NCBI GenBank assembly: GCA_048882325.1
Contig: JBHLRS010000001.1
Span: 85,557-149,556 of the forward strand
Length of the DNA stretch: 64,000 nt
Direction of reading: 5' to 3'
Source: Candidatus Thorarchaeota archaeon
GTDB lineage: Archaea; Asgardarchaeota; Thorarchaeia; Thorarchaeales; Thorarchaeaceae
The position numbers and the translations under genes were made by a program. Under the pieces are notes generated by a model that saw only the letters and a list, made by a program, of their open reading frames with translations, was not told the DNA's origin and searched no databases. This document shows, one piece after another, positions 2,971 through 11,826 of this stretch (within the stretch, counting starts at the first letter, position 1; the number at the start of each line of letters is the position of its first letter).

Positions 2971-4206
2971 TTATGAGGTTGGCAGTCGGATGATGAATTT
3001 TGTACCACCTAGGTCTGGATCATCAACTAATTCAATGGAACCTTTGTGAGATTCTAGGACAAATTTAGAGAGATATAGTCCGACGCCCCCTTCCTCTGAT
3101 TGAGATTTTGATCCCCGTCGAAAGAGAAATTCTCTCTTTTCAATAGGAATGCCCGGCCCATCATCACTTATAGAGATTACAAAGTTATCTTCTTCAAGAG
3201 AAATATCAACAAAAACAGTTGGTGATTCTCCAGCATATTGCGCCGCATTTCTGAAGATATTTTGCCAAACCATTGGAAGAAGTCTGCTTGCAGTGAAAGC
3301 ACACTTGCTAACTTCTTTTTCGCCAGTGACTTTTATTTTCAGATGTCTATGTGTCTTTTGAGAATCGAGTGCAACTTCCTCTATATGTTTGACTAAATCC
3401 ATTTCTGGTAGCTCAAGTGGCATAGAAAAGACATGAAGTAATTGCACCATTCTATTGCCAAGGTCAATTGATTGAGTGAGATTCTGATTGACTTTATTGA
3501 TGTCGATATCAAGAAACAGCTGAGCCAGCTCAATTGAGCTTAGAATGGCCTGCAAATCATTCCTTAGATCGTGTCGCAACAGCTGGGTATACACCTCAAG
3601 CTCCCACTGTTGTCTTGTCAAGTCACTATTGCTCTGCTCAACCTGCTCAATGTATTGCTCCAATGTATAGGATGCTACAAGAATGAAGAATGTAACAACG
3701 ATAGCAGTACCAATGTGACTGTCAAATTCCGTAATTGGAATGCCAAATATGACATTCACAATGAAAACCATTGTTGAAATCATAACTACTCCTTGAGCAA
3801 AAACAACAGTAGTCCTTGTGAGTAATGCACCACCCACTAGTGCAACCATAAACCAGACCATTAATCGAGGTAGATCATTTGGTTGCCAGCTAGTCCCAAA
3901 TAGAAAGATGGTGACTGGTAATATTGTGATTGCAGCTACCGTAGTTGTCTGAACCACATCATAATACTTGGTTCTTGTTCCCAAATACATGAAGAACACT
4001 AGTAGAATCGCACTAAGATATGTGGGAGTGGAGAAGAAAACGAGTTCACTTGTGAATTGCGCGAAGGAGAATATTGGAATTGCGATGAGAAGAAATGACG
4101 AGAGGAGACGTGATTGCTGTCTTTTTCTCAAACCCTGTACGGATGGATGTGGTTCGATAAGACTGGAAAGGAATTTACCCACATCACTGAGAAACCCCTC
4201 ATTCAT
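2971..4206 (-). CDS. Membrane-bound sensor histidine kinase
   Basis: About 6 N-terminal TM helices; H-box LRHDLRN, N-box NIFRNAAQY, G1 DDGPGI, G2 GGVGLYL. Confidence 0.9.
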   Translation of the reverse strand: MNEGFLSDVGKFLSSLIEPHPSVQGLRKRQQSRLLSSFLLIAIPIFSFAQFTSELVFFSTPTYLSAILLVFFMYLGTRTKYYDVVQTTTVAAITILPVTIFLFGTSWQPNDLPRLMVWFMVALVGGALLTRTTVVFAQGVVMISTMVFIVNVIFGIPITEFDSHIGTAIVVTFFILVASYTLEQYIEQVEQSNSDLTRQQWELEVYTQLLRHDLRNDLQAILSSIELAQLFLDIDINKVNQNLTQSIDLGNRMVQLLHVFSMPLELPEMDLVKHIEEVALDSQKTHRHLKIKVTGEKEVSKCAFTASRLLPMVWQNIFRNAAQYAGESPTVFVDISLEEDNFVISISDDGPGIPIEKREFLFRRGSKSQSEEGGVGLYLSKFVLESHKGSIELVDDPDLGGTKFIIRLPTS

Positions 4207-4371
4207 ATTAGCACCTTTTTCATTGCTCAGTCTAAATCAGAGTTTGTGAAATATAAGGAAAGTTCGTCTAGTTCTTCTAATCATAAAACAGAATCTGGTA
4301 AAATGGGATAGAGAATACGACCATCCATACAGTAACTAAAGATAAATCAATGACATCAATTTCGTTTTACT

Positions 4372-5391
4372 ATGGACTCATCCGCCCTCTTAAGATATCT
4401 TCAATCAAAATTCACCGATCGTAACTCTCTACAAATCGTAAACTACAAAGACATCACTAGCGGATGGGAAACTCAAATCTACGCATTCGATTTGAGGTGG
4501 GAAGTCAATCAAAAGGAAGAGAGCGAGCATCTTATTGTGAGGGTGTATGCTCCTGGAATCAGCGAGAAGACTGAACATGAAGCTAGAGTCATGAAGCAAC
4601 TATCCACGATGGACTACCCTGTACCAATGGTACATATCACAGAAACTGATGAGTCTCTACTCGGTAAACCCTTCATGATAATGGACAGAATAACTGGGAG
4701 TACTCTTGAAGACAAAATATCGGTGCCTAATGCTGACTTCTCAAAATGGTTGCGAGTTTTTAGTGAGTTGTTTGTTAAACTGCACAATCTTGACTGGACA
4801 GTCTTCCTTTCTGATCCTAACATCATACCTAAAGATGACCCTTATTTCATAATCAACACAATGCTCTCAGACTATCGAGTCAAGATAACACAATATGATA
4901 AGGAGGAGCTCTTGCCTATTGTTGAGTGGCTTGAAACTAATGCGAATCGAGTGCCATGCTACAGGCCCTCTGTCACTCACGGCGATTTCCATCCAATGAA
5001 CATCATGATTGATGACGATGAACTTCCATATGTGATTGATTGGGGCGCAGCTGGCGTGAGAGATTTTAGAATGGACCTTGCGTGGACATTACTACTTACT
5101 AGAGCATACTCGACTCAAGAGAATCATGATTTCATCCTCAAAGGGTACGAGGATGAGGTAGGGCATCAGATCAATGAAATCGAATATTTCGAAGTTCTTG
5201 CCATACTCCGTCGTCTGTTTGATGTACTAGTTTCTATGGATGAGGGAGCAACTTCGCGAGGAATGCGAGAAGGTGCAGTAGAACTAATTAGGGAACAAAT
5301 GGGTCACGTCAAGGTCGTTTACTCTTTGCTTGTTGAGATGACTGAGATTCAAATTCCAGAAGTGGAATCTTGGATTGACAGCTTTCTCTAA
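4372..5391 (+). CDS. Aminoglycoside-phosphotransferase (APH)-family kinase
   Basis: Catalytic HGDFHPMN and IDW motifs; N-lobe GWET. Confidence 0.85.
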   Translation: MDSSALLRYLQSKFTDRNSLQIVNYKDITSGWETQIYAFDLRWEVNQKEESEHLIVRVYAPGISEKTEHEARVMKQLSTMDYPVPMVHITETDESLLGKPFMIMDRITGSTLEDKISVPNADFSKWLRVFSELFVKLHNLDWTVFLSDPNIIPKDDPYFIINTMLSDYRVKITQYDKEELLPIVEWLETNANRVPCYRPSVTHGDFHPMNIMIDDDELPYVIDWGAAGVRDFRMDLAWTLLLTRAYSTQENHDFILKGYEDEVGHQINEIEYFEVLAILRRLFDVLVSMDEGATSRGMREGAVELIREQMGHVKVVYSLLVEMTEIQIPEVESWIDSFL

Positions 5392-5430
5392 TTATTGAGG
5401 TCGTTCCTGCTATCACTATGATTTATCACT

Positions 5431-6732
5431 ATGTTTCGAAATGCAATGAATGGGATGGGTTTGATGAGTGATGACAGATCTCTTGAGTATCTAACTGTAA
5501 AATCATTGCACTTGGTTGAGCAGGGACGACTAGGTGAGGCTGAGTCGCTTCTTGCAACAGTTGTCAAGGAAACTCCAAATTCTGCAATACATTGGTCATT
5601 ATATGCATATGTCGCAAGCTGCTTTGGCCGCAAATCTGAGTATGACAAGGCACTCGAATCAGCAAAGAAGCTGGCCGAGAGTAATGCGGTTGTACACTTC
5701 AATATTGGAGTAGCAATGAAACGCATTAAGGACCCTTCATGGAAAGGCATGCTAAAGAAAGCAGCAAAACTTGATGACGGACTCAAGGACCAAGTAAAAT
5801 CCGCAATGAAAGTTGATTATCCTACCCCTCTCATTGTATATCCAACTGGATCTGAGGAGCTACTAGCTCAAATAGCAGAAGGTGAACCCTCAGGACCTCA
5901 GCTCTCTAAAGCAAAACCAGTTGATCACGATGTGGATGTCATTTCTGGGATGATCCGAAAAGTTAGAGGTCGTCTCTTGAGAGATGATGTAGAAGAGCGA
6001 GCAGGATATCTCATGGGTGGAGTCGTAGTACGTTTGGAAGATGTGACTCTTGAGATGAGGTATGGTCCTGAGAGCAAAGGAGAGATATATCCCGCAGGAA
6101 CCATGGTCACGGTCACGATTGAGGATGGTAGAGTACCAAGAATCATTGAGATAACAGATAATACAGAGGAACCACTTGAAGGACCTGCTTACGTTGAGGT
6201 TCCAAAGTTCTCCTACCAAGCTAGATGGCCAAAGATGTGCTGTGGTTGTGGCGAAACTCAACTGAAGCAGCTTAAACTGCAGGGTGTGAATTGGGATGCA
6301 GAGTTCACACTTCCAAAAACAGAAGTCGTTGAAGTGGCTGTTCGAAGACTCAACTGGAAACGAATTGGTGCTGTTGCTCTTACATATGTCATAGGAACGA
6401 TATTTGGTGTTCAACCAGCTGTCACAAGCTCATTTGCGCTTGAGATCTCTTCTGAGATAGAAGACAAGTACGACTATTACCTGAAAGAATTGGAAACACT
6501 CAATGAGGTTAAGATGCATCTCTCCATGAATCTCTATCTCTGCAAGGAATGTAAGAAAGAGAAGAAAGACTATGGAGCATATGTTTCAGTCACTCCTCGT
6601 GAGTTTGATGATGGCTTTCCAGCATTGATTATTGAGTTTGGTAATGAAGTGTTCATGAGAGTCTTTCATGATCACAATCCAGGAGATATCTTTGCCACGG
6701 TCACTAGAGAGAAGATTCAGATCCTATCCTAA
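5431..6732 (+). CDS. Hypothetical protein with TPR-like N-terminus and Cys-pair (Zn-binding) C-terminal domain
   Basis: TPR-like helices (GRLGEAESLL..., YDKALESAKK); WPKMCCGCG and LCKECKK flank a hydrophobic segment. True start may be a downstream Met. Confidence 0.5.
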   Translation: MFRNAMNGMGLMSDDRSLEYLTVKSLHLVEQGRLGEAESLLATVVKETPNSAIHWSLYAYVASCFGRKSEYDKALESAKKLAESNAVVHFNIGVAMKRIKDPSWKGMLKKAAKLDDGLKDQVKSAMKVDYPTPLIVYPTGSEELLAQIAEGEPSGPQLSKAKPVDHDVDVISGMIRKVRGRLLRDDVEERAGYLMGGVVVRLEDVTLEMRYGPESKGEIYPAGTMVTVTIEDGRVPRIIEITDNTEEPLEGPAYVEVPKFSYQARWPKMCCGCGETQLKQLKLQGVNWDAEFTLPKTEVVEVAVRRLNWKRIGAVALTYVIGTIFGVQPAVTSSFALEISSEIEDKYDYYLKELETLNEVKMHLSMNLYLCKECKKEKKDYGAYVSVTPREFDDGFPALIIEFGNEVFMRVFHDHNPGDIFATVTREKIQILS

Positions 6733-6741
6733 ACAATACAA

Positions 6742-7557
6742 TCACTGATTTGAGAATCCACCATGATGGAACTCTATTTTGCATTGTACTTTCGTCAACG
6801 CACAGTAGCTCTCAATATCCTCTTCCATCTCATTCCACATTAAGGGTCGATTTCGAATCTTCTTATAATAGTCTTTTAACTCTGGAAATCTATTTTCAAC
6901 TAGACTCATTATTCGAGAAATATTATGTGATCTGAAGTTCAGATTTTCAAAACGAAAGTCATCTGTTGTTTGAACTGCTGCTTTTATTATCGCTTGCCAA
7001 TCAGTTATCATTGGAAAGATTGGGGAAACAAAAACATATGTTGGTATTCCTGCTTGCGAGATGGTCTGCAATGCTTCAAGCCGTTCCATTGGTTTCGAAG
7101 CTCTTGGTTCAATGACTCTGCTAACTCTCTCATCAAGAGTACTTATGGAGATTCCAATACGGATTTTTCCAAATTGTTCGAAAAGATCAATGTCTCTTGT
7201 CACCAGTTTGGATTTTGTCAATATCTGTATTGATGCCGTCGTGCCAATGAGCTTCTCTAGAACTCGCTTCGTGTTCTCGTACTTCACCTCTAAGGGTGTA
7301 TATGGATCAGTAACTGAGCTAAAAAGGAGGGTTTTGCCATCGTATTTCTCAGGTTTTATCCGACTCATATCATACTGTTTCACATCAAGAAATTCGCCCC
7401 ATTGATCACCGCTATGATTGGTGAATCGTTTCATGAATTCTGCATAGCAGTAGATACAGCCATGCTGACATCCAATGTAAGGATTAATCACAAAATCTAT
7501 TCCTGGTATCCTGCTTTTTGTAATGATACTCTTTGCTGATACCCTATTGACCTTCAT
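6742..7557 (-). CDS. Radical SAM protein, spore-photoproduct-lyase-like family
   Basis: INPYIGCQHGCIYCYA (CxxxCxxC), SSVTDPY, ILTKS, EPRAS. Confidence 0.85.
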   Translation of the reverse strand: MKVNRVSAKSIITKSRIPGIDFVINPYIGCQHGCIYCYAEFMKRFTNHSGDQWGEFLDVKQYDMSRIKPEKYDGKTLLFSSVTDPYTPLEVKYENTKRVLEKLIGTTASIQILTKSKLVTRDIDLFEQFGKIRIGISISTLDERVSRVIEPRASKPMERLEALQTISQAGIPTYVFVSPIFPMITDWQAIIKAAVQTTDDFRFENLNFRSHNISRIMSLVENRFPELKDYYKKIRNRPLMWNEMEEDIESYCALTKVQCKIEFHHGGFSNQ

Positions 7558-7618: not shown

Positions 7619-8047
7619 CTATGAAACAAAGATTTTGTCAGCAATGTGTCTGACTATGGCTCTAGTGATACCACTAACAAAACCCGTCGCAATTGTTTTG
7701 TCTAAGCATTCTATAAGTACGGGATTTTCCACCACCTTTCTGACAAATTCATTCAGACTTTGAATAGCATGTGATGTCTGTCCCTTGAAGACATAACTAA
7801 ACAAGAGTGAGGATTCATGTTTCATAATCATGGTATATTCACCAATAGTGACACTATCAAGAGGTCTTGCGAATATCTTGTCAGTCAGAAAAACAAGGGC
7901 AGTCAAAAAACTAGAAACAAGATTTTCATTATCTTTCAGGTATGGGTGGAACTCTACAGACGCAAGATTAACACCTGTTTGGGCGGCTGAGAGAAACAGT
8001 TGAACTGGCTCTTCTTTCATGTTTTCCACGTCAGTAATTGCTAACAT
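7619..8047 (-). CDS. Longin-like domain protein
   Basis: Beta-beta-alpha pattern 'LFLSAAQTGVNLASVEF...NLVSSFLTALVFLTDKIF...YTMIMKH...FSYVFKG', typical of Asgard longin-like domains. Fold assignment is by pattern only. Confidence 0.55.
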   Translation of the reverse strand: MLAITDVENMKEEPVQLFLSAAQTGVNLASVEFHPYLKDNENLVSSFLTALVFLTDKIFARPLDSVTIGEYTMIMKHESSLLFSYVFKGQTSHAIQSLNEFVRKVVENPVLIECLDKTIATGFVSGITRAIVRHIADKIFVS

Positions 8048-8144
8048 TGTTCACACCTTGCCAAATGGGGTATGGGAGGAGAGAAGGAGTAGAGCCCTTC
8101 TCTGTTTGTATGAAGCTCAACTCACAACTCCTCCTAGATTTAGT

Positions 8145-9539
8145 TCACAGTCTGGTGGATGCTGTTGTTGTTATCCGATCCAACCTCCCAGTCAGTGCAG
8201 ACCAGAACAATAGATAGCTTACCACAACCCAACCGTAGCCATAGTCAATTCCTGCAAGTCCAATCACAATTGGAGGCAATCTGATGACGAAGAAGAGGAT
8301 TATTGCAATAGCTACTCCCAAGGGTTTTAGACTACCAGAAGCACCACTTTTTCTCATACGCCTCCAAACTCCGAGGAATATCACGGAAGGCAACAACATA
8401 ATCCCAATGGTCGGGAGAATGATGTATAGGAGATCCAGGAACGCTTGGCCAATACTTGTTGGATAAGCTTGACCGATAAGTAATGAGATCGGTGCATAGA
8501 CAATCATAGGTCCTAATGCCGCACTCCTCCACCCAGCAGCATAAATGGCTCCCACTGAGAGGAATGTCAATGCGTATCCAGTAAGGATGAATTCTATGTA
8601 AATCCCAAGTGGATCCGGAAACATCGAGAGGTTCTGAAGCATCCCCGTCATCTGTCCAATTCCTAACATAAAGAACGCAATCATGAACATGAGCGTAGGA
8701 ATCTGCTTTGTTTCAGCCCACCTACCAAAGAGATATGATGCTGTTCCTATTGACAGGAGAATTGCTACTGCTCCCATCGATGTGATGCTCAAGAGGAAGA
8801 AGTCTGATGTGAACCCTGCTGATTGGATACTGACAAGAATAAGCACTGGAAATGCAAAAGAGGCTCCATAACCAACCAGTTCAAAAGTGATTTTCTGGTC
8901 CGGTCGCAAGAATGTGAAGACAACCATTGCGGGACCCATTAGTGCTATGAATAAGGTTACTAATGACTCAGGTCCAATGAGCAAGTCGAAGTAAAGTACC
9001 GGAAGACCAGCTATTTGGGCAATGAGTGCAAAGGCGAGAGATGCACTTGTTCCACGCTTGGTCTCTCGTGTTATGTAGACAAACAATCCTCCCACAACAA
9101 TGAGAATTACTGATGGAAATAGAACTCCTATCAGTAGTAGGAAATCCCCTGTCTGCGGATACATTTCTGCGAGTGCAAACAGCAAAACCGAAACAAGTCC
9201 AGTTGATGCTGGAATGGAATAGAATTGTCTTGCATTCAGAATCATCGCTGCGGCTACACCTAACAAAACCACCTCTACAGCTGATGCAGCGTAAAAGGCA
9301 TAATAGGTGTCAACCAAGATGGCTTGTCCAATTGTTTCTTCGATGAATGTTGCCATTGCACCAAGGCTAAGGACAACAAAACCGACTGCGACAACGTATA
9401 GTGGTCGAAAAGCTTTTCGAGACTCTGAATCCATTCCAGCAGATTTGGATCTGCTGTACATGATAATGGTCAGAGCAGCCACTAAAGTTGCCAATCCAAG
9501 ATAGAGTTGAGTTGTTTCATATATTCCCATAGCTAACAC
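8145..9539 (-). CDS. Polytopic membrane protein (~15 TM, apparent 7TM+1+7TM)
   Basis: About 15 hydrophobic segments counted by eye; no soluble catalytic domain; 3 bp downstream of 9543..9986. Confidence 0.65.
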   Translation of the reverse strand: MLAMGIYETTQLYLGLATLVAALTIIMYSRSKSAGMDSESRKAFRPLYVVAVGFVVLSLGAMATFIEETIGQAILVDTYYAFYAASAVEVVLLGVAAAMILNARQFYSIPASTGLVSVLLFALAEMYPQTGDFLLLIGVLFPSVILIVVGGLFVYITRETKRGTSASLAFALIAQIAGLPVLYFDLLIGPESLVTLFIALMGPAMVVFTFLRPDQKITFELVGYGASFAFPVLILVSIQSAGFTSDFFLLSITSMGAVAILLSIGTASYLFGRWAETKQIPTLMFMIAFFMLGIGQMTGMLQNLSMFPDPLGIYIEFILTGYALTFLSVGAIYAAGWRSAALGPMIVYAPISLLIGQAYPTSIGQAFLDLLYIILPTIGIMLLPSVIFLGVWRRMRKSGASGSLKPLGVAIAIILFFVIRLPPIVIGLAGIDYGYGWVVVSYLLFWSALTGRLDRITTTASTRL

Positions 9540-9542
9540 ATC

Positions 9543-9986
9543 CTAAAACACAGTTTTTCCCCAGTCGCTAGCGGATTTCTTAGCCTTTTCAACCTGCGAC
9601 TCGGTCCATTCCTTCACACTCTCAGTTACCTCTGCAGAAGCTTCCTTATCATCCGAGAATAGCTCTCTCATCAAGGCGAGAGTACCATCATCGAACTGCC
9701 CACCATTCTCTTGAATCAGTTTGACTACTTCCTGGTTTGCAGCTAATGCGCTTGCCTCATTGGCTTCATGGAGTGTGACGATATGGTATTCATCGGAATT
9801 GCCAATCAGCAGTTTCATGTCTCCAAAGCGGAGTTCTTCCACTCTTGTGCCACCAGCGATCTTCTTGATGAACATCTGCACAGCTGACACAAAACCTCCA
9901 AACAGGGTGACGTCACCCTCTAGGTGTTCCCACCCAACCGATGCAACGGTTTCCCCTGCTTGGTTCACCAACATAATGCCGTACAT
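9543..9986 (-). CDS. Longin-like domain protein
   Basis: 'YGIMLVNQAGETVAS...DVTLFGGFVSAVQMFIKKI...VEELRFGDMKLLI' matches the Asgard longin/sedlin-like pattern. Confidence 0.65.
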   Translation of the reverse strand: MYGIMLVNQAGETVASVGWEHLEGDVTLFGGFVSAVQMFIKKIAGGTRVEELRFGDMKLLIGNSDEYHIVTLHEANEASALAANQEVVKLIQENGGQFDDGTLALMRELFSDDKEASAEVTESVKEWTESQVEKAKKSASDWGKTVF

Positions 9987-10034
9987 TTCGTTTTTCTCCG
10001 ATTGATAGCTAACTGTGTTATCATGATCAAGTTG

Positions 10035-10304
10035 TTACAATGAACTGAACCAGTCCTCCGTCTTCTCGATGGCATCCTTTTTGCCATCATCTTCCCCTGA
10101 AGTTCCCAAAGCAGCTTCAACGTCCCTGATTTTGAATTGACCATCCACGAACAAGACAAGTGTATGATTTTTCGAGCAGCTCGTCGTGACCATTGCAGGC
10201 AAACGTTTAGCTTTCTTTATCGAATCTTCATCAACATCAACTTTTACTAGAGTTCCGTCTTTGCATTCTGGACATGTGAATGGACTCAATGACACTTTCG
10301 CCAT
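10035..10304 (-). CDS. Small Zn-ribbon protein
   Basis: CPEC ... CSKNH followed by LVLFVDGQFKIRDVE; 3 bp downstream of the GTPase stop. Confidence 0.65.
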   Translation of the reverse strand: MAKVSLSPFTCPECKDGTLVKVDVDEDSIKKAKRLPAMVTTSCSKNHTLVLFVDGQFKIRDVEAALGTSGEDDGKKDAIEKTEDWFSSL

Positions 10305-10307
10305 TTT

Positions 10308-10844
10308 TTACACCCCTTCTAGATGCTCTTTGATTAGTCCCTGAGCAATGAGATCAAACATATCTGAAATTCCCTCACCCGTTTTTGCTGAAACCTCTAC
10401 ACAATGAGCACCATAATTCTGTGCGAACACTACTCCGTCCTCGTATGACACACCAGAACCATTCTCTCGTTCATCAGTTTTGTTTCCGACAAGGAGAATC
10501 TTGCTATCTGGGGCACTCTCTTTGAGCCGATCAATCCAATCTGTTAGTCGACCTAAGGAATATGACCGATTGACATCATAGACTGCAATGGCATACTTTG
10601 ATCCCCTGAAATAATCTGACACGACATCACGAAACCGTGGCTGTCCTCCAAGATCCCAAATCATTAGGGTTAGAGTAGAGCCATTTGACTCGATTTTCTT
10701 TGATGCGAAATTTGCACCTATGGTGAGTCTCATGTTATCATCAAAACGGTCTTCCGTATATCGGAGGGTAATGCTGGTTTTACCAACGCCGCCCTCACCG
10801 ATTATCACCGTTTTGAAGACTGGAGCTCTAGTTGTGTTAATCAT
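10308..10844 (-). CDS. Rab-like small GTPase (Ras superfamily)
   Basis: G1 GEGGVGKT, G2 TIG, G3 WDLGGQ, G4 NKTD, G5 SAK. Start placed at ATG 10844 (GAGGT upstream, overlaps upstream stop as ATGATTAA). No C-terminal Cys. Confidence 0.92.
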   Translation of the reverse strand: MINTTRAPVFKTVIIGEGGVGKTSITLRYTEDRFDDNMRLTIGANFASKKIESNGSTLTLMIWDLGGQPRFRDVVSDYFRGSKYAIAVYDVNRSYSLGRLTDWIDRLKESAPDSKILLVGNKTDERENGSGVSYEDGVVFAQNYGAHCVEVSAKTGEGISDMFDLIAQGLIKEHLEGV

Positions 10845-11658
10845 TGGCTTTACCTCTGGTTTCTTTTCCTTCGACAGTGTTGACAGACCAAAGAATCTCC
10901 CCTCCAGAACGAAGTAGGATTCTTTTGGCATCTCTGTATCTTTCAATGAATTCATCATTGTCAGATAGCAAAACATGAGCAAGTCTCTCAAGCAATACTG
11001 AGAATGACACACTATCTATTGCTGATGCGTTCATTTGGTTCACGAGTTTTTCGAGGGCATTGAATAGTACCATGTCTTGTTCCAGAATCAGATTAGTCAG
11101 TTCTTTACAGTCCTCTTCCGAAGGCTCAATTCCCCAACCATTCTGTAAGAAATCAATACAGGGATATGGGCTATCAGTGGAGAATTTTGGTCGATGGTAG
11201 ATGAAGAACCGAGCTACTGATCGAAACTGCAACCCTCTTGTCCTCTTCTTCCTGCCATCATCGTCAAACTCTGATGGGGGATCTTGTTCAACGAGATCCT
11301 GTTCTTCCAACTTCTGGAGATGATAATAACACTGATGACTAGTGATTTTGAGCTCTGGGTACTTGTTTTCAAGTTCCTCAACAATTTCCGGGACTGTCAA
11401 CCAATATCTTTGGATTGGTCTCCTCACCTCTACCGAATGAGTGAGTCCAGTACCATCGTCAAGTGTCTGTACCTCTGTTGTGACCTCAGTTTCAAAATCA
11501 TTAATTCCGGCAGAGAGGACCCGAATGATGTGCTTACGAATTGGATGGTGGAGTGATTCCTTCTGCTCATCATGTTCAATCAGAAGCAGCGTTCTTGGAC
11601 TGCTTTCTGCTTGACTGATAAGAGTTGTTTCATCCACATTAATTCCCACGGTTATCAC
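10837..11658 (-). CDS. Winged-helix (ArsR-like) transcription regulator
   Basis: 'SLHHPIRKHIIRVL...TVPEIVEEL...CYYHLQKLEEQDLVEQ'; strongly similar to the N-terminus of 11827..13671. Confidence 0.7.
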   Translation of the reverse strand: MITVGINVDETTLISQAESSPRTLLLIEHDEQKESLHHPIRKHIIRVLSAGINDFETEVTTEVQTLDDGTGLTHSVEVRRPIQRYWLTVPEIVEELENKYPELKITSHQCYYHLQKLEEQDLVEQDPPSEFDDDGRKKRTRGLQFRSVARFFIYHRPKFSTDSPYPCIDFLQNGWGIEPSEEDCKELTNLILEQDMVLFNALEKLVNQMNASAIDSVSFSVLLERLAHVLLSDNDEFIERYRDAKRILLRSGGEILWSVNTVEGKETRGKAND

Positions 11659-11669
11659 TTCATTCTGTC

Positions 11670-11689
11670 AACACTTGCTGTCAAGTGTT
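11670..11689. promoter_or_regulatory. Perfect inverted repeat, candidate operator between divergent wHTH genes
   Basis: AACACTTG-CTGT-CAAGTGTT, beside AT-rich TATA-like tracts (11720-11790). Confidence 0.5.
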
Positions 11690-11826
11690 ATTGTAACGAG
11701 TTGCAATAAAAAAATAACAGTATTTAAATCTATTTCATTAGTAAGAATAATTAATATAGTAAATCACAATAACCAAATCTTTTAAGTTTGGACAAATACA
11801 CGTTATAATCAGAGAGGAGAACTTCC

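Follow-up and report, generated by a model that had tools for sequence, protein, structure and literature searches.

A Rab-like GTPase cassette of Thorarchaeota with a predicted longin-fold protein, a zinc-ribbon-like protein and a polytopic membrane protein

Introduction

The actinobacterial conservons (CvnA-D; Mfp) are operons in which a small GTPase is encoded together with its regulators, and there experimental work has grounded the assignment of the roadblock protein as the GTPase-activating protein (GAP) and of CvnC as the likely guanine nucleotide exchange factor (GEF) (PMC13343842, PMC13621833). In Asgard archaea, Liu et al. (bioRxiv 10.1101/2020.10.19.343400) described an operon of a LAMTOR1-like roadblock protein, a Rab-like GTPase and a DENN-domain protein, and reported that most Asgard eukaryotic signature protein genes lie outside conserved neighbourhoods. 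Likewise, Tran et al. (2024, PMC10933270) note that MK-D1 generally does not keep its GTPase genes in one operon with those of roadblock or longin proteins. Here we analyze a stretch of 64,000 nucleotides of Candidatus Thorarchaeota archaeon (assembly GCA_048882325.1, contig JBHLRS010000001.1, positions 85,557 to 149,556), hereafter the window, that contains a cassette of four genes encoding a Rab-like GTPase, a zinc-ribbon-like protein (Zn protein), a longin-fold protein (L147) and a polytopic membrane protein (MEM). Targeted literature searching found no description of this cassette.

The cassette resembles the conservons in that both are four-gene operons in which a Ras-superfamily GTPase is joined by a membrane protein, a member of the roadblock/longin superfamily and a small protein without a known fold family, and in that both are multiplied within genomes. 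However, CvnA has a histidine-kinase (HATPase) domain whereas MEM has no soluble domain and no Pfam or NCBIfam domain; CvnB is a MglB-type Roadblock/LC7 protein whereas L147 is longin-type and gives no Robl_LC7 match, the superfamily being related; and CvnC is a DUF742 protein whereas the Zn protein carries an invariant CPxC...Cx3H motif and has no above-threshold Pfam match. The hosts also differ, since the cassette belongs to an Asgard archaeon and its GTPase is Rab-like. Because the components do not fall into the conservon families and no sequence homology beyond the superfamily level was found, we regard the cassette as an analogue of the conservons and not as one of them. The operon of Liu et al. 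is among the few conserved Asgard GTPase-regulator neighbourhoods reported, and like the cassette it has a roadblock/longin-superfamily protein beside a Rab-like GTPase. The cassette has no DENN counterpart, contains a zinc ribbon and a polytopic membrane protein in addition, and occurs mainly in a single family of Thorarchaeota.

Three further systems are comparable. The MglA-MglB pair of Myxococcus and Thermus is another case of a prokaryotic small GTPase gene that adjoins the gene of a roadblock/longin-superfamily regulator; it differs in having two genes and no dedicated membrane or zinc partner, and MglB is roadblock-type. MglA is not known to share the arrangement of the catalytic Gln seen in Rab-like proteins. 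The eukaryotic longin platforms (TRAPP core Bet5/Trs23, Mon1-Ccz1, Fuzzy-Inturned, sigma/zeta adaptins) regulate Rab, Arf and Rag GTPases. The GEFs among them have at least two longin subunits, whereas the cassette has one conserved longin gene together with a Zn-ribbon protein and could not be placed in their sequence families. Finally, in the Rag-Ragulator-SLC38A9 system of the eukaryotic lysosome a small GTPase acts on the membrane as one unit with a scaffold of roadblock fold and a polytopic membrane protein. That system has Rag heterodimers with their own roadblock domains, a lipid-anchored Ragulator and the APC-fold SLC38A9, none of which was found in the cassette.

Results

Four genes stay together through two gene orders

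A search of 400 genomes of the phylum detected MEM in 45, with 42 of the 85 genomes of the window's family and 2 of ~315 elsewhere. In 26 out of 29 MEM-centred loci the GTPase, Zn, L147 and MEM genes stand together, and the other three loci are broken by contig ends. Two gene orders were found: GTPase-Zn-L147-MEM, with MEM proteins 37-100% identical, and Zn-L147-MEM-GTPase, with MEM proteins 24-29% identical; the latter is also the order in the two out-of-family genomes, and in one locus the GTPase gene lies on the opposite strand. Distant loci (MEM ~40% identical) keep the order of a GTPase, a protein of 84-86 aa, one of 144-148 aa and a membrane protein of 452-493 aa in unrelated surroundings. 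In an L147-centred survey of 43 loci, with one genome per species, the Zn gene immediately preceded L147 in 40 loci and MEM came after it in 35, the remainder being mostly cut by a contig end; a few of these loci are MEM-less Zn-L147-GTPase variants. The Zn protein, which the initial annotation of the window had treated as minor, is thus the closest partner of L147. In all, the linkage was observed in more than 60 loci of three paralogous classes (A1, A2 and B). This adjacency of four genes is far beyond chance, and its persistence through permutation in the three classes is strong evidence for a functional unit. A module of the kind that the initial annotation proposed is borne out as a conserved gene set for GTPase-Zn-L147-MEM; conservation does not extend to the flanking genes, as L142, encoding a second longin-fold protein, is seldom present and a winged helix-turn-helix (wHTH) gene is found only in class A1.

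The genome studied carries the A1 copy in the window, a class B copy and a remnant of an A2 copy. The class B copy, on contig C12 (L035:3050-5651, minus strand), consists of Zn (5397-5651), an L147-like gene (4993-5382), MEM (3599-4981; the protein is 24% identical to the window MEM) and GTPase (3050-3586). A 168 aa ORF that follows this GTPase was considered as a fifth gene and rejected, having a single relative and no longin signal. The A2 remnant, on contig C5 (L036:3957-6223), consists of PhzF, a GTPase and a 244 aa membrane protein, and Zn, L147 and MEM are missing in between. The C5 GTPase looks intact and is 76% identical to the A2 cassette GTPase of locus L002, and the 244 aa membrane protein shares 58% identity with the product of the gene after MEM in L002.

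The cassette GTPases form a dedicated subfamily

The window GTPase matches Pfam Ras at 5e-41. Its nearest solved relatives among PDB sequences are Rab18, Rab14 and Rab35 at ~3e-32, followed by Rab2 and Rab6 to 1e-30, and the Thorarchaeota Rab 7EZB matches at 1.3e-28. An alignment of 23 cassette GTPases showed the G1 motif GEGGVGKT (16-23), T41, DLGGQ (64-68, with the catalytic Gln), NKTD (121-124) and SAK (152-154) to be invariant. None of these 23 homologues has a conserved Cys in the last 15 residues, and the window GTPase ends in ..KEHLEGV. The initial reading of a Rab-like protein with complete G1-G5 motifs and no prenylatable Cys is therefore borne out; we call the protein Rab-like and not Rab because the geranylgeranylation Cys motif is absent. 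In a maximum-likelihood tree, built from archaeal sequences only, all 29 cassette GTPases (the A2 remnant included) group in a single clade (support 100/98), separate from ten other GTPases encoded in this genome. This shows that the cassette GTPases are a dedicated subfamily. A predicted complex of L147, the Zn protein and the GTPase, with the GTPase as the partner, gave a score of 0.01 and a mark of 0.32, which is no verdict and was used neither for nor against binding.

We favour, at a probability of roughly 55%, the reading that the cassette core is a membrane-associated small-GTPase switch of four proteins, specific to Thorarchaeota. MEM would be the membrane anchor or sensor and offer a conserved cytoplasmic face, and L147 and the Zn protein would form a soluble regulatory platform that sets the nucleotide state or the location of the lipid-less Rab-like GTPase. 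The best experimentally grounded parallel for such a platform is offered by CvnB, a roadblock GAP, and CvnC, a small protein and likely GEF, which stand between membrane sensor and GTPase in the actinobacterial conservons. The Trp tails in which L147 and the Zn protein end may bind to MEM or to the membrane and in this way stand in for prenylation, and in class A1 a pair of wHTH proteins would control transcription. L147 itself may act as GEF, as GAP or as scaffold, and either partner may be the GEF or the GAP.

MEM has a predicted duplicated seven-helix architecture

Hydropathy gives 15 helices for MEM, and the positive-inside pattern fits an outside N-terminus, an inside C-terminus and a 7+1+7 arrangement. 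Residues 15-178 align with residues 257-419 (hhalign probability 85%, E 6e-6). MEM is thus predicted to consist of two parallel repeats of seven transmembrane (TM) helices with one joining helix, in agreement with the duplicated 7-TM unit noticed at the outset. Among 32 sequences, conservation is 0.575 in the predicted cytoplasmic loops vs 0.39 in the outer ones, and the near-invariant residues lie mostly in predicted cytoplasmic loops or at cytoplasmic helix ends. Several intramembrane prolines are conserved. The family (32 members) has no Pfam match, and neither an NCBIfam match nor a PDB sequence relative was found. Its 68 homologues are nearly all labelled Thorarchaeota, and neighbouring locus tags among the homologues of MEM and L147 indicate a gene pair. 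The language-model neighbours of MEM are unnamed bacterial clusters of 215-219 aa, and HisKA_7TM occurs in 10% of the members of one weak cluster (score 0.84).

It is conceivable, if rather doubtful, that MEM is a receptor of two 7-TM bundles that signals to the Rab-like GTPase through longin and Zn-ribbon adaptors tethered by their Trp tails. If true, this would be an archaeal pathway from a 7TM protein to a small G protein that uses the same longin-GTPase logic as eukaryotic membrane identity. Another possibility, which we hold unlikely, is a transporter-coupled switch, with MEM as a transporter or 'transceptor' whose transport is sensed or gated by the GTPase, longin and Zn proteins, as in the comparison with Rag-Ragulator and the amino-acid transporter SLC38A9. 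Repeated TM bundles are typical of secondary transporters, and the 15 predicted helices, the internal repeat, the conserved intramembrane prolines and the lack of a soluble domain are in keeping with such a role; the conserved cytoplasmic face would suit the docking of a regulator as well as the output of a receptor. However, comparison with Pfam, NCBIfam and PDB sequences showed no similarity of MEM to a transporter family, its predicted repeats are parallel whereas most repeated transporter folds have inverted repeats, and substrate-related genes are not conserved near the loci examined.

L147 and L142 are predicted longin folds

AlphaFold2 (AF2) models of L147 and L142 were analyzed with DSSP (L147: E3-8 E13-17 H26-44 E51-54 E57-63 E67-74 H80-93 H100-110; L142: E13-21 E27-32 H41-58 E65-68 E71-78 E81-88 H91-106 H109-121). 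Both models have a beta-beta-alpha-beta-beta-beta-alpha-alpha topology without the N-terminal helix of roadblock proteins, and both superpose on solved longin domains over the whole domain. The fit is better to longins (110-126 aligned residues) than to roadblocks (90-102), and among the best structural matches are subunits of TRAPP, Fuzzy-Inturned and Mon1-Ccz1, which are Rab GEFs of the longin type. Both proteins are therefore predicted to be longins, an assignment made at the level of the fold only, and the models agree with the longin folds that had been expected for 7619..8047 and 9543..9986. Neither protein has a Pfam match at E <= 0.1 (Longin, Sybindin, Clat_adaptor_s and Robl_LC7 included), an NCBIfam match at E <= 1 or a PDB sequence match. 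The two families are homologous to each other (hhalign 94.5%, E 7.6e-8), and the conserved L142 motif G-F-L-x-A-x3-F-S is similar to the L147 motif GGFVSAxQMF.

The 78 homologues of L147 are nearly all labelled Thorarchaeota. Among its Atlas neighbours is a 376-member Asgard cluster in which ~45% of the members have a small-GTPase domain, in proteins of ~308 aa; this suggests fusions of the longin fold with a GTPase. On contig C1 (L037:1751-2604, minus strand) a third L147-like gene (136 aa) adjoins a true Roadblock/LC7 gene (129 aa, Pfam 2.7e-10), and beside them lies a gene for a 555 aa coiled-coil protein with a terminal zinc ribbon.

The longin-type fold also bears on the possibility of a spatial or polarity module of the MglA-MglB kind, in which L147 would be a GAP that confines the GTP-bound GTPase to a site marked by MEM and thereby organises envelope or cytoskeletal machinery, with no relay of an external signal. 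The adjoining genes of a small GTPase and a roadblock/longin-superfamily protein recall that pair, but the models fit longins better than roadblocks, the GTPase is Rab-like with its catalytic Gln and not MglA-like, and no motility or cytoskeletal genes are linked in the loci examined. We consider such a module quite improbable.

L142 is a local addition to the cassette

A k-mer-based homologue search found no relatives of L142, whereas an exhaustive search recovered 404, counted as clusters at 50% identity; in most of these the domain sits at the C-terminus of a protein of 500-750 aa. Seven of the 10 relatives scanned contain TPR repeats, the named ones are from Thorarchaeota, Heimdallarchaeota and Hodarchaeales, and the domain family has no Pfam match. 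An L142 homologue lies downstream of MEM in only one close relative, and L142 is absent from 3 of the 4 class A1 relatives with a readable region, so that it occupies this position in 2 class A1 loci and in no class A2 or B locus. L142 thus appears to be an additional longin domain that was recruited recently and does not belong to the core.

This distribution does not support the scaffold of two longin-like proteins that the initial annotation had drawn, since only L147 is a conserved member and L142 is a local add-on. The corresponding model, in which L142 and L147 form a Mon1-Ccz1-like heterodimer that joins MEM to the GTPase as its GEF, draws on the predicted longin fold of both proteins, on their mutual homology and on the Mon1-Ccz1, TRAPP and Fuzzy-Inturned subunits among the top structural matches. 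L142 is also preceded by its own ribosome-binding-site-like AGGTG, with no T-run terminator upstream. Against it, the sole conserved small partner of L147 is the Zn-ribbon protein, L142 is missing from most of the class A1 relatives and all of the A2 and B loci, and its relatives are mostly C-terminal domains of larger proteins (TPR proteins where sampled). We therefore regard the heterodimer as very unlikely.

Elsewhere in the genome, two larger ORFs of 435 and 530 aa on contigs C66 (3268-5485) and C3 (113281-115450) have weak L142-type domain matches. They precede other small-GTPase genes by 221 and 68 nt, respectively, and may form additional pairs of longin and GTPase.

The Zn protein and L147 share conserved Trp tails

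An alignment of 24 sequences of the Zn protein showed C11, P12, C14, R34, C43 and H47 to be invariant and W85 to be almost so. Neither Pfam nor NCBIfam gave an above-threshold match, a weak Zn_ribbon_16 match (E 0.096) falling below it. Both L147 and the Zn protein end in a conserved Trp tail preceded by an acidic linker (Table 1); the tails are class-specific, and the class labels are confounded with phylogeny. The only clean MEM-less variant, a single case (L067:2719-4056, Zn-L147-GTPase), has an L147 without the Trp tail and a Zn protein that keeps its own. Another MEM-less Zn-L147-GTPase variant (L078:733-2227) forms a tandem with a full cassette. In loci L085 and L087, distant L147-like proteins that do not belong to a cassette end in ..SWFDEV and ..NWFEEV, which resemble the tail of the Zn protein; one of these two records is labelled as a bacterial metagenome-assembled genome (Deferrimicrobium).

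Gene layout and a candidate promoter with operator in class A1

The ORF listing gives six co-oriented ORFs on the minus strand between 7619 and 11658, with gaps of -8, 3, 48, 3 and 97 nt, as first described (Table 1). The 3' end of the wHTH gene overlaps the GTPase start by 8 nt, and the GTPase length is counted from the ATG that fits this overlap. The length of MEM is counted from a GTG, the database records beginning at an ATG three codons later. Of the operon proteins other than the GTPase, none has an above-threshold Pfam or NCBIfam match except for the weak HTH_20 match of the wHTH protein. No T-run follows the hairpin ahead of L142 on its 3' side. GC content is ~40-46%, which is unremarkable. 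A radical-SAM gene (6742-7557, minus strand; Pfam 3.7e-14, with weak DUF5131 and SPL-like matches) extends the co-oriented run 61 nt past L142 and was not seen adjoining the cassette in the relatives examined.

Table 1 Features of the cassette locus, with positions counted from the first nucleotide of the window; the tails of L147 and the Zn protein are given by class.
Feature	Position	Strand	Description
PAS-wHTH gene, divergent, 614 aa	11827..13671	+	Pfam PAS_3 6e-40, PAS_8, PAS_9, HTH_20
Upstream block TACTAATG	11736..11743	-	Conserved part of the operon promoter region; 6 class A1 loci keep it (nearly) unchanged
Candidate archaeal TATA box TTTAAATA	11721..11728	-	~65 nt ahead of the start codon of the wHTH gene
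Candidate operator, palindrome TATTGCAA-N4-TTACAATA	11689..11708	-	Immediately downstream of the TATA box
wHTH protein, 273 aa	10837..11658	-	First operon gene in class A1; Pfam HTH_20 8e-6, just short of the curated cut-off
Rab-like small GTPase, 178 aa	10308..10844	-	G1-G5 and catalytic Gln intact, no C-terminal Cys
Zn-ribbon-like protein, 89 aa	10035..10304	-	CPxC...Cx3H, acidic linker, conserved C-terminal tail ..DKTxDWFSSL
L147, predicted longin-fold protein, 147 aa	9543..9986	-	C-terminal helical extension and conserved tail ..SDWGKTVF
MEM, polytopic membrane protein, 464 aa	8145..9539	-	15 predicted TM helices (7+1+7), no soluble domain
Inverted repeat GAGAAGG-N8-CCTTCTC, hairpin-forming	8081..8102	-	Inside the 97 nt gap ahead of L142; read from the sequence
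L142, stand-alone predicted longin-fold protein, 142 aa	7619..8047	-	Lineage-specific accessory gene
Class A tails			L147 ..DWGK(T/K)VF; Zn protein ..WF(D/E)S(L/F)
Class B tails			L147 ..(D/E)WASKML; Zn protein ..WMD(S/N)F

The wHTH gene lies directly upstream of the GTPase gene in 5/5 class A1 relatives, and in the same five it is head-to-head with the PAS-wHTH gene; both are absent from class A2 and B loci. The PAS-wHTH protein has an N-terminal wHTH domain paralogous to the first gene of the operon, followed by several PAS domains, and no catalytic output domain. In the region between the two genes, TTAAAT is invariant in 6 class A1 loci; its role as a TATA box is assigned from the archaeal promoter consensus. 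The palindrome downstream of it is kept in 5 of the 6 loci in the shared form TATTGCAA-N4-TTrCAATA, and is perfect in two. The upstream block, the candidate TATA box and the palindrome have the layout expected of an archaeal promoter with an operator, and the wHTH proteins presumably bind the palindrome. As the class A1 operon stands behind this TATA box and palindrome and faces the PAS-wHTH paralogue, it is probably expressed under the control of a signal and autoregulated. A second perfect palindrome, ACACTTG-N4-CAAGTGT (11671-11688, minus strand), lies between the candidate operator and the wHTH start codon and is partly conserved in relatives.

Discussion

The idea that the four genes are mere neighbours with no functional link is hardly tenable given more than 60 linked loci in three paralogous classes and two orders, gaps of a few nt or overlaps, and a dedicated GTPase clade. 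Several observations nevertheless weigh against the four-protein membrane-associated switch that we favour. The A2-type GTPase on contig C5 is kept without Zn, L147 and MEM, and some loci are MEM-less, which indicates that the partners are not always obligatory. The alignment of L147 contains no invariant Arg. Arginine-finger GAPs with a longin fold exist in NPRL2 and FLCN; because of the missing Arg such a role is unlikely for L147 and was dropped, which is no pointer to a GEF. The docking of the Trp tails is proposed from their conservation and from one MEM-less variant. Finally, the topology of MEM is predicted from hydropathy, and its designation as a sensor from its architecture, no relative of known function having been detected.

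The narrow phyletic range of the cassette argues against direct ancestry of any eukaryotic system, so that its value lies in mechanism and comparison and not in genealogy. Small GTPases number dozens in Asgard genomes, longin and roadblock proteins are likewise numerous, and the regulators cannot be matched to the GTPases because they are rarely in shared operons (PMC10933270; Liu et al. preprint). The cassette assigns to one GTPase subfamily three fixed partners, a membrane protein included. With this fixed set a defined reconstitution is possible, which would address the binding pairs, the distinction of GEF from GAP and the route by which a lipid-less GTPase reaches the membrane. The presence of a predicted longin-fold protein instead of a roadblock protein in a prokaryote-style GTPase operon bears on the origin of longin-based GTPase control, and the cassette points to the probable partners of a GTPase in archaea closely related to eukaryotes.

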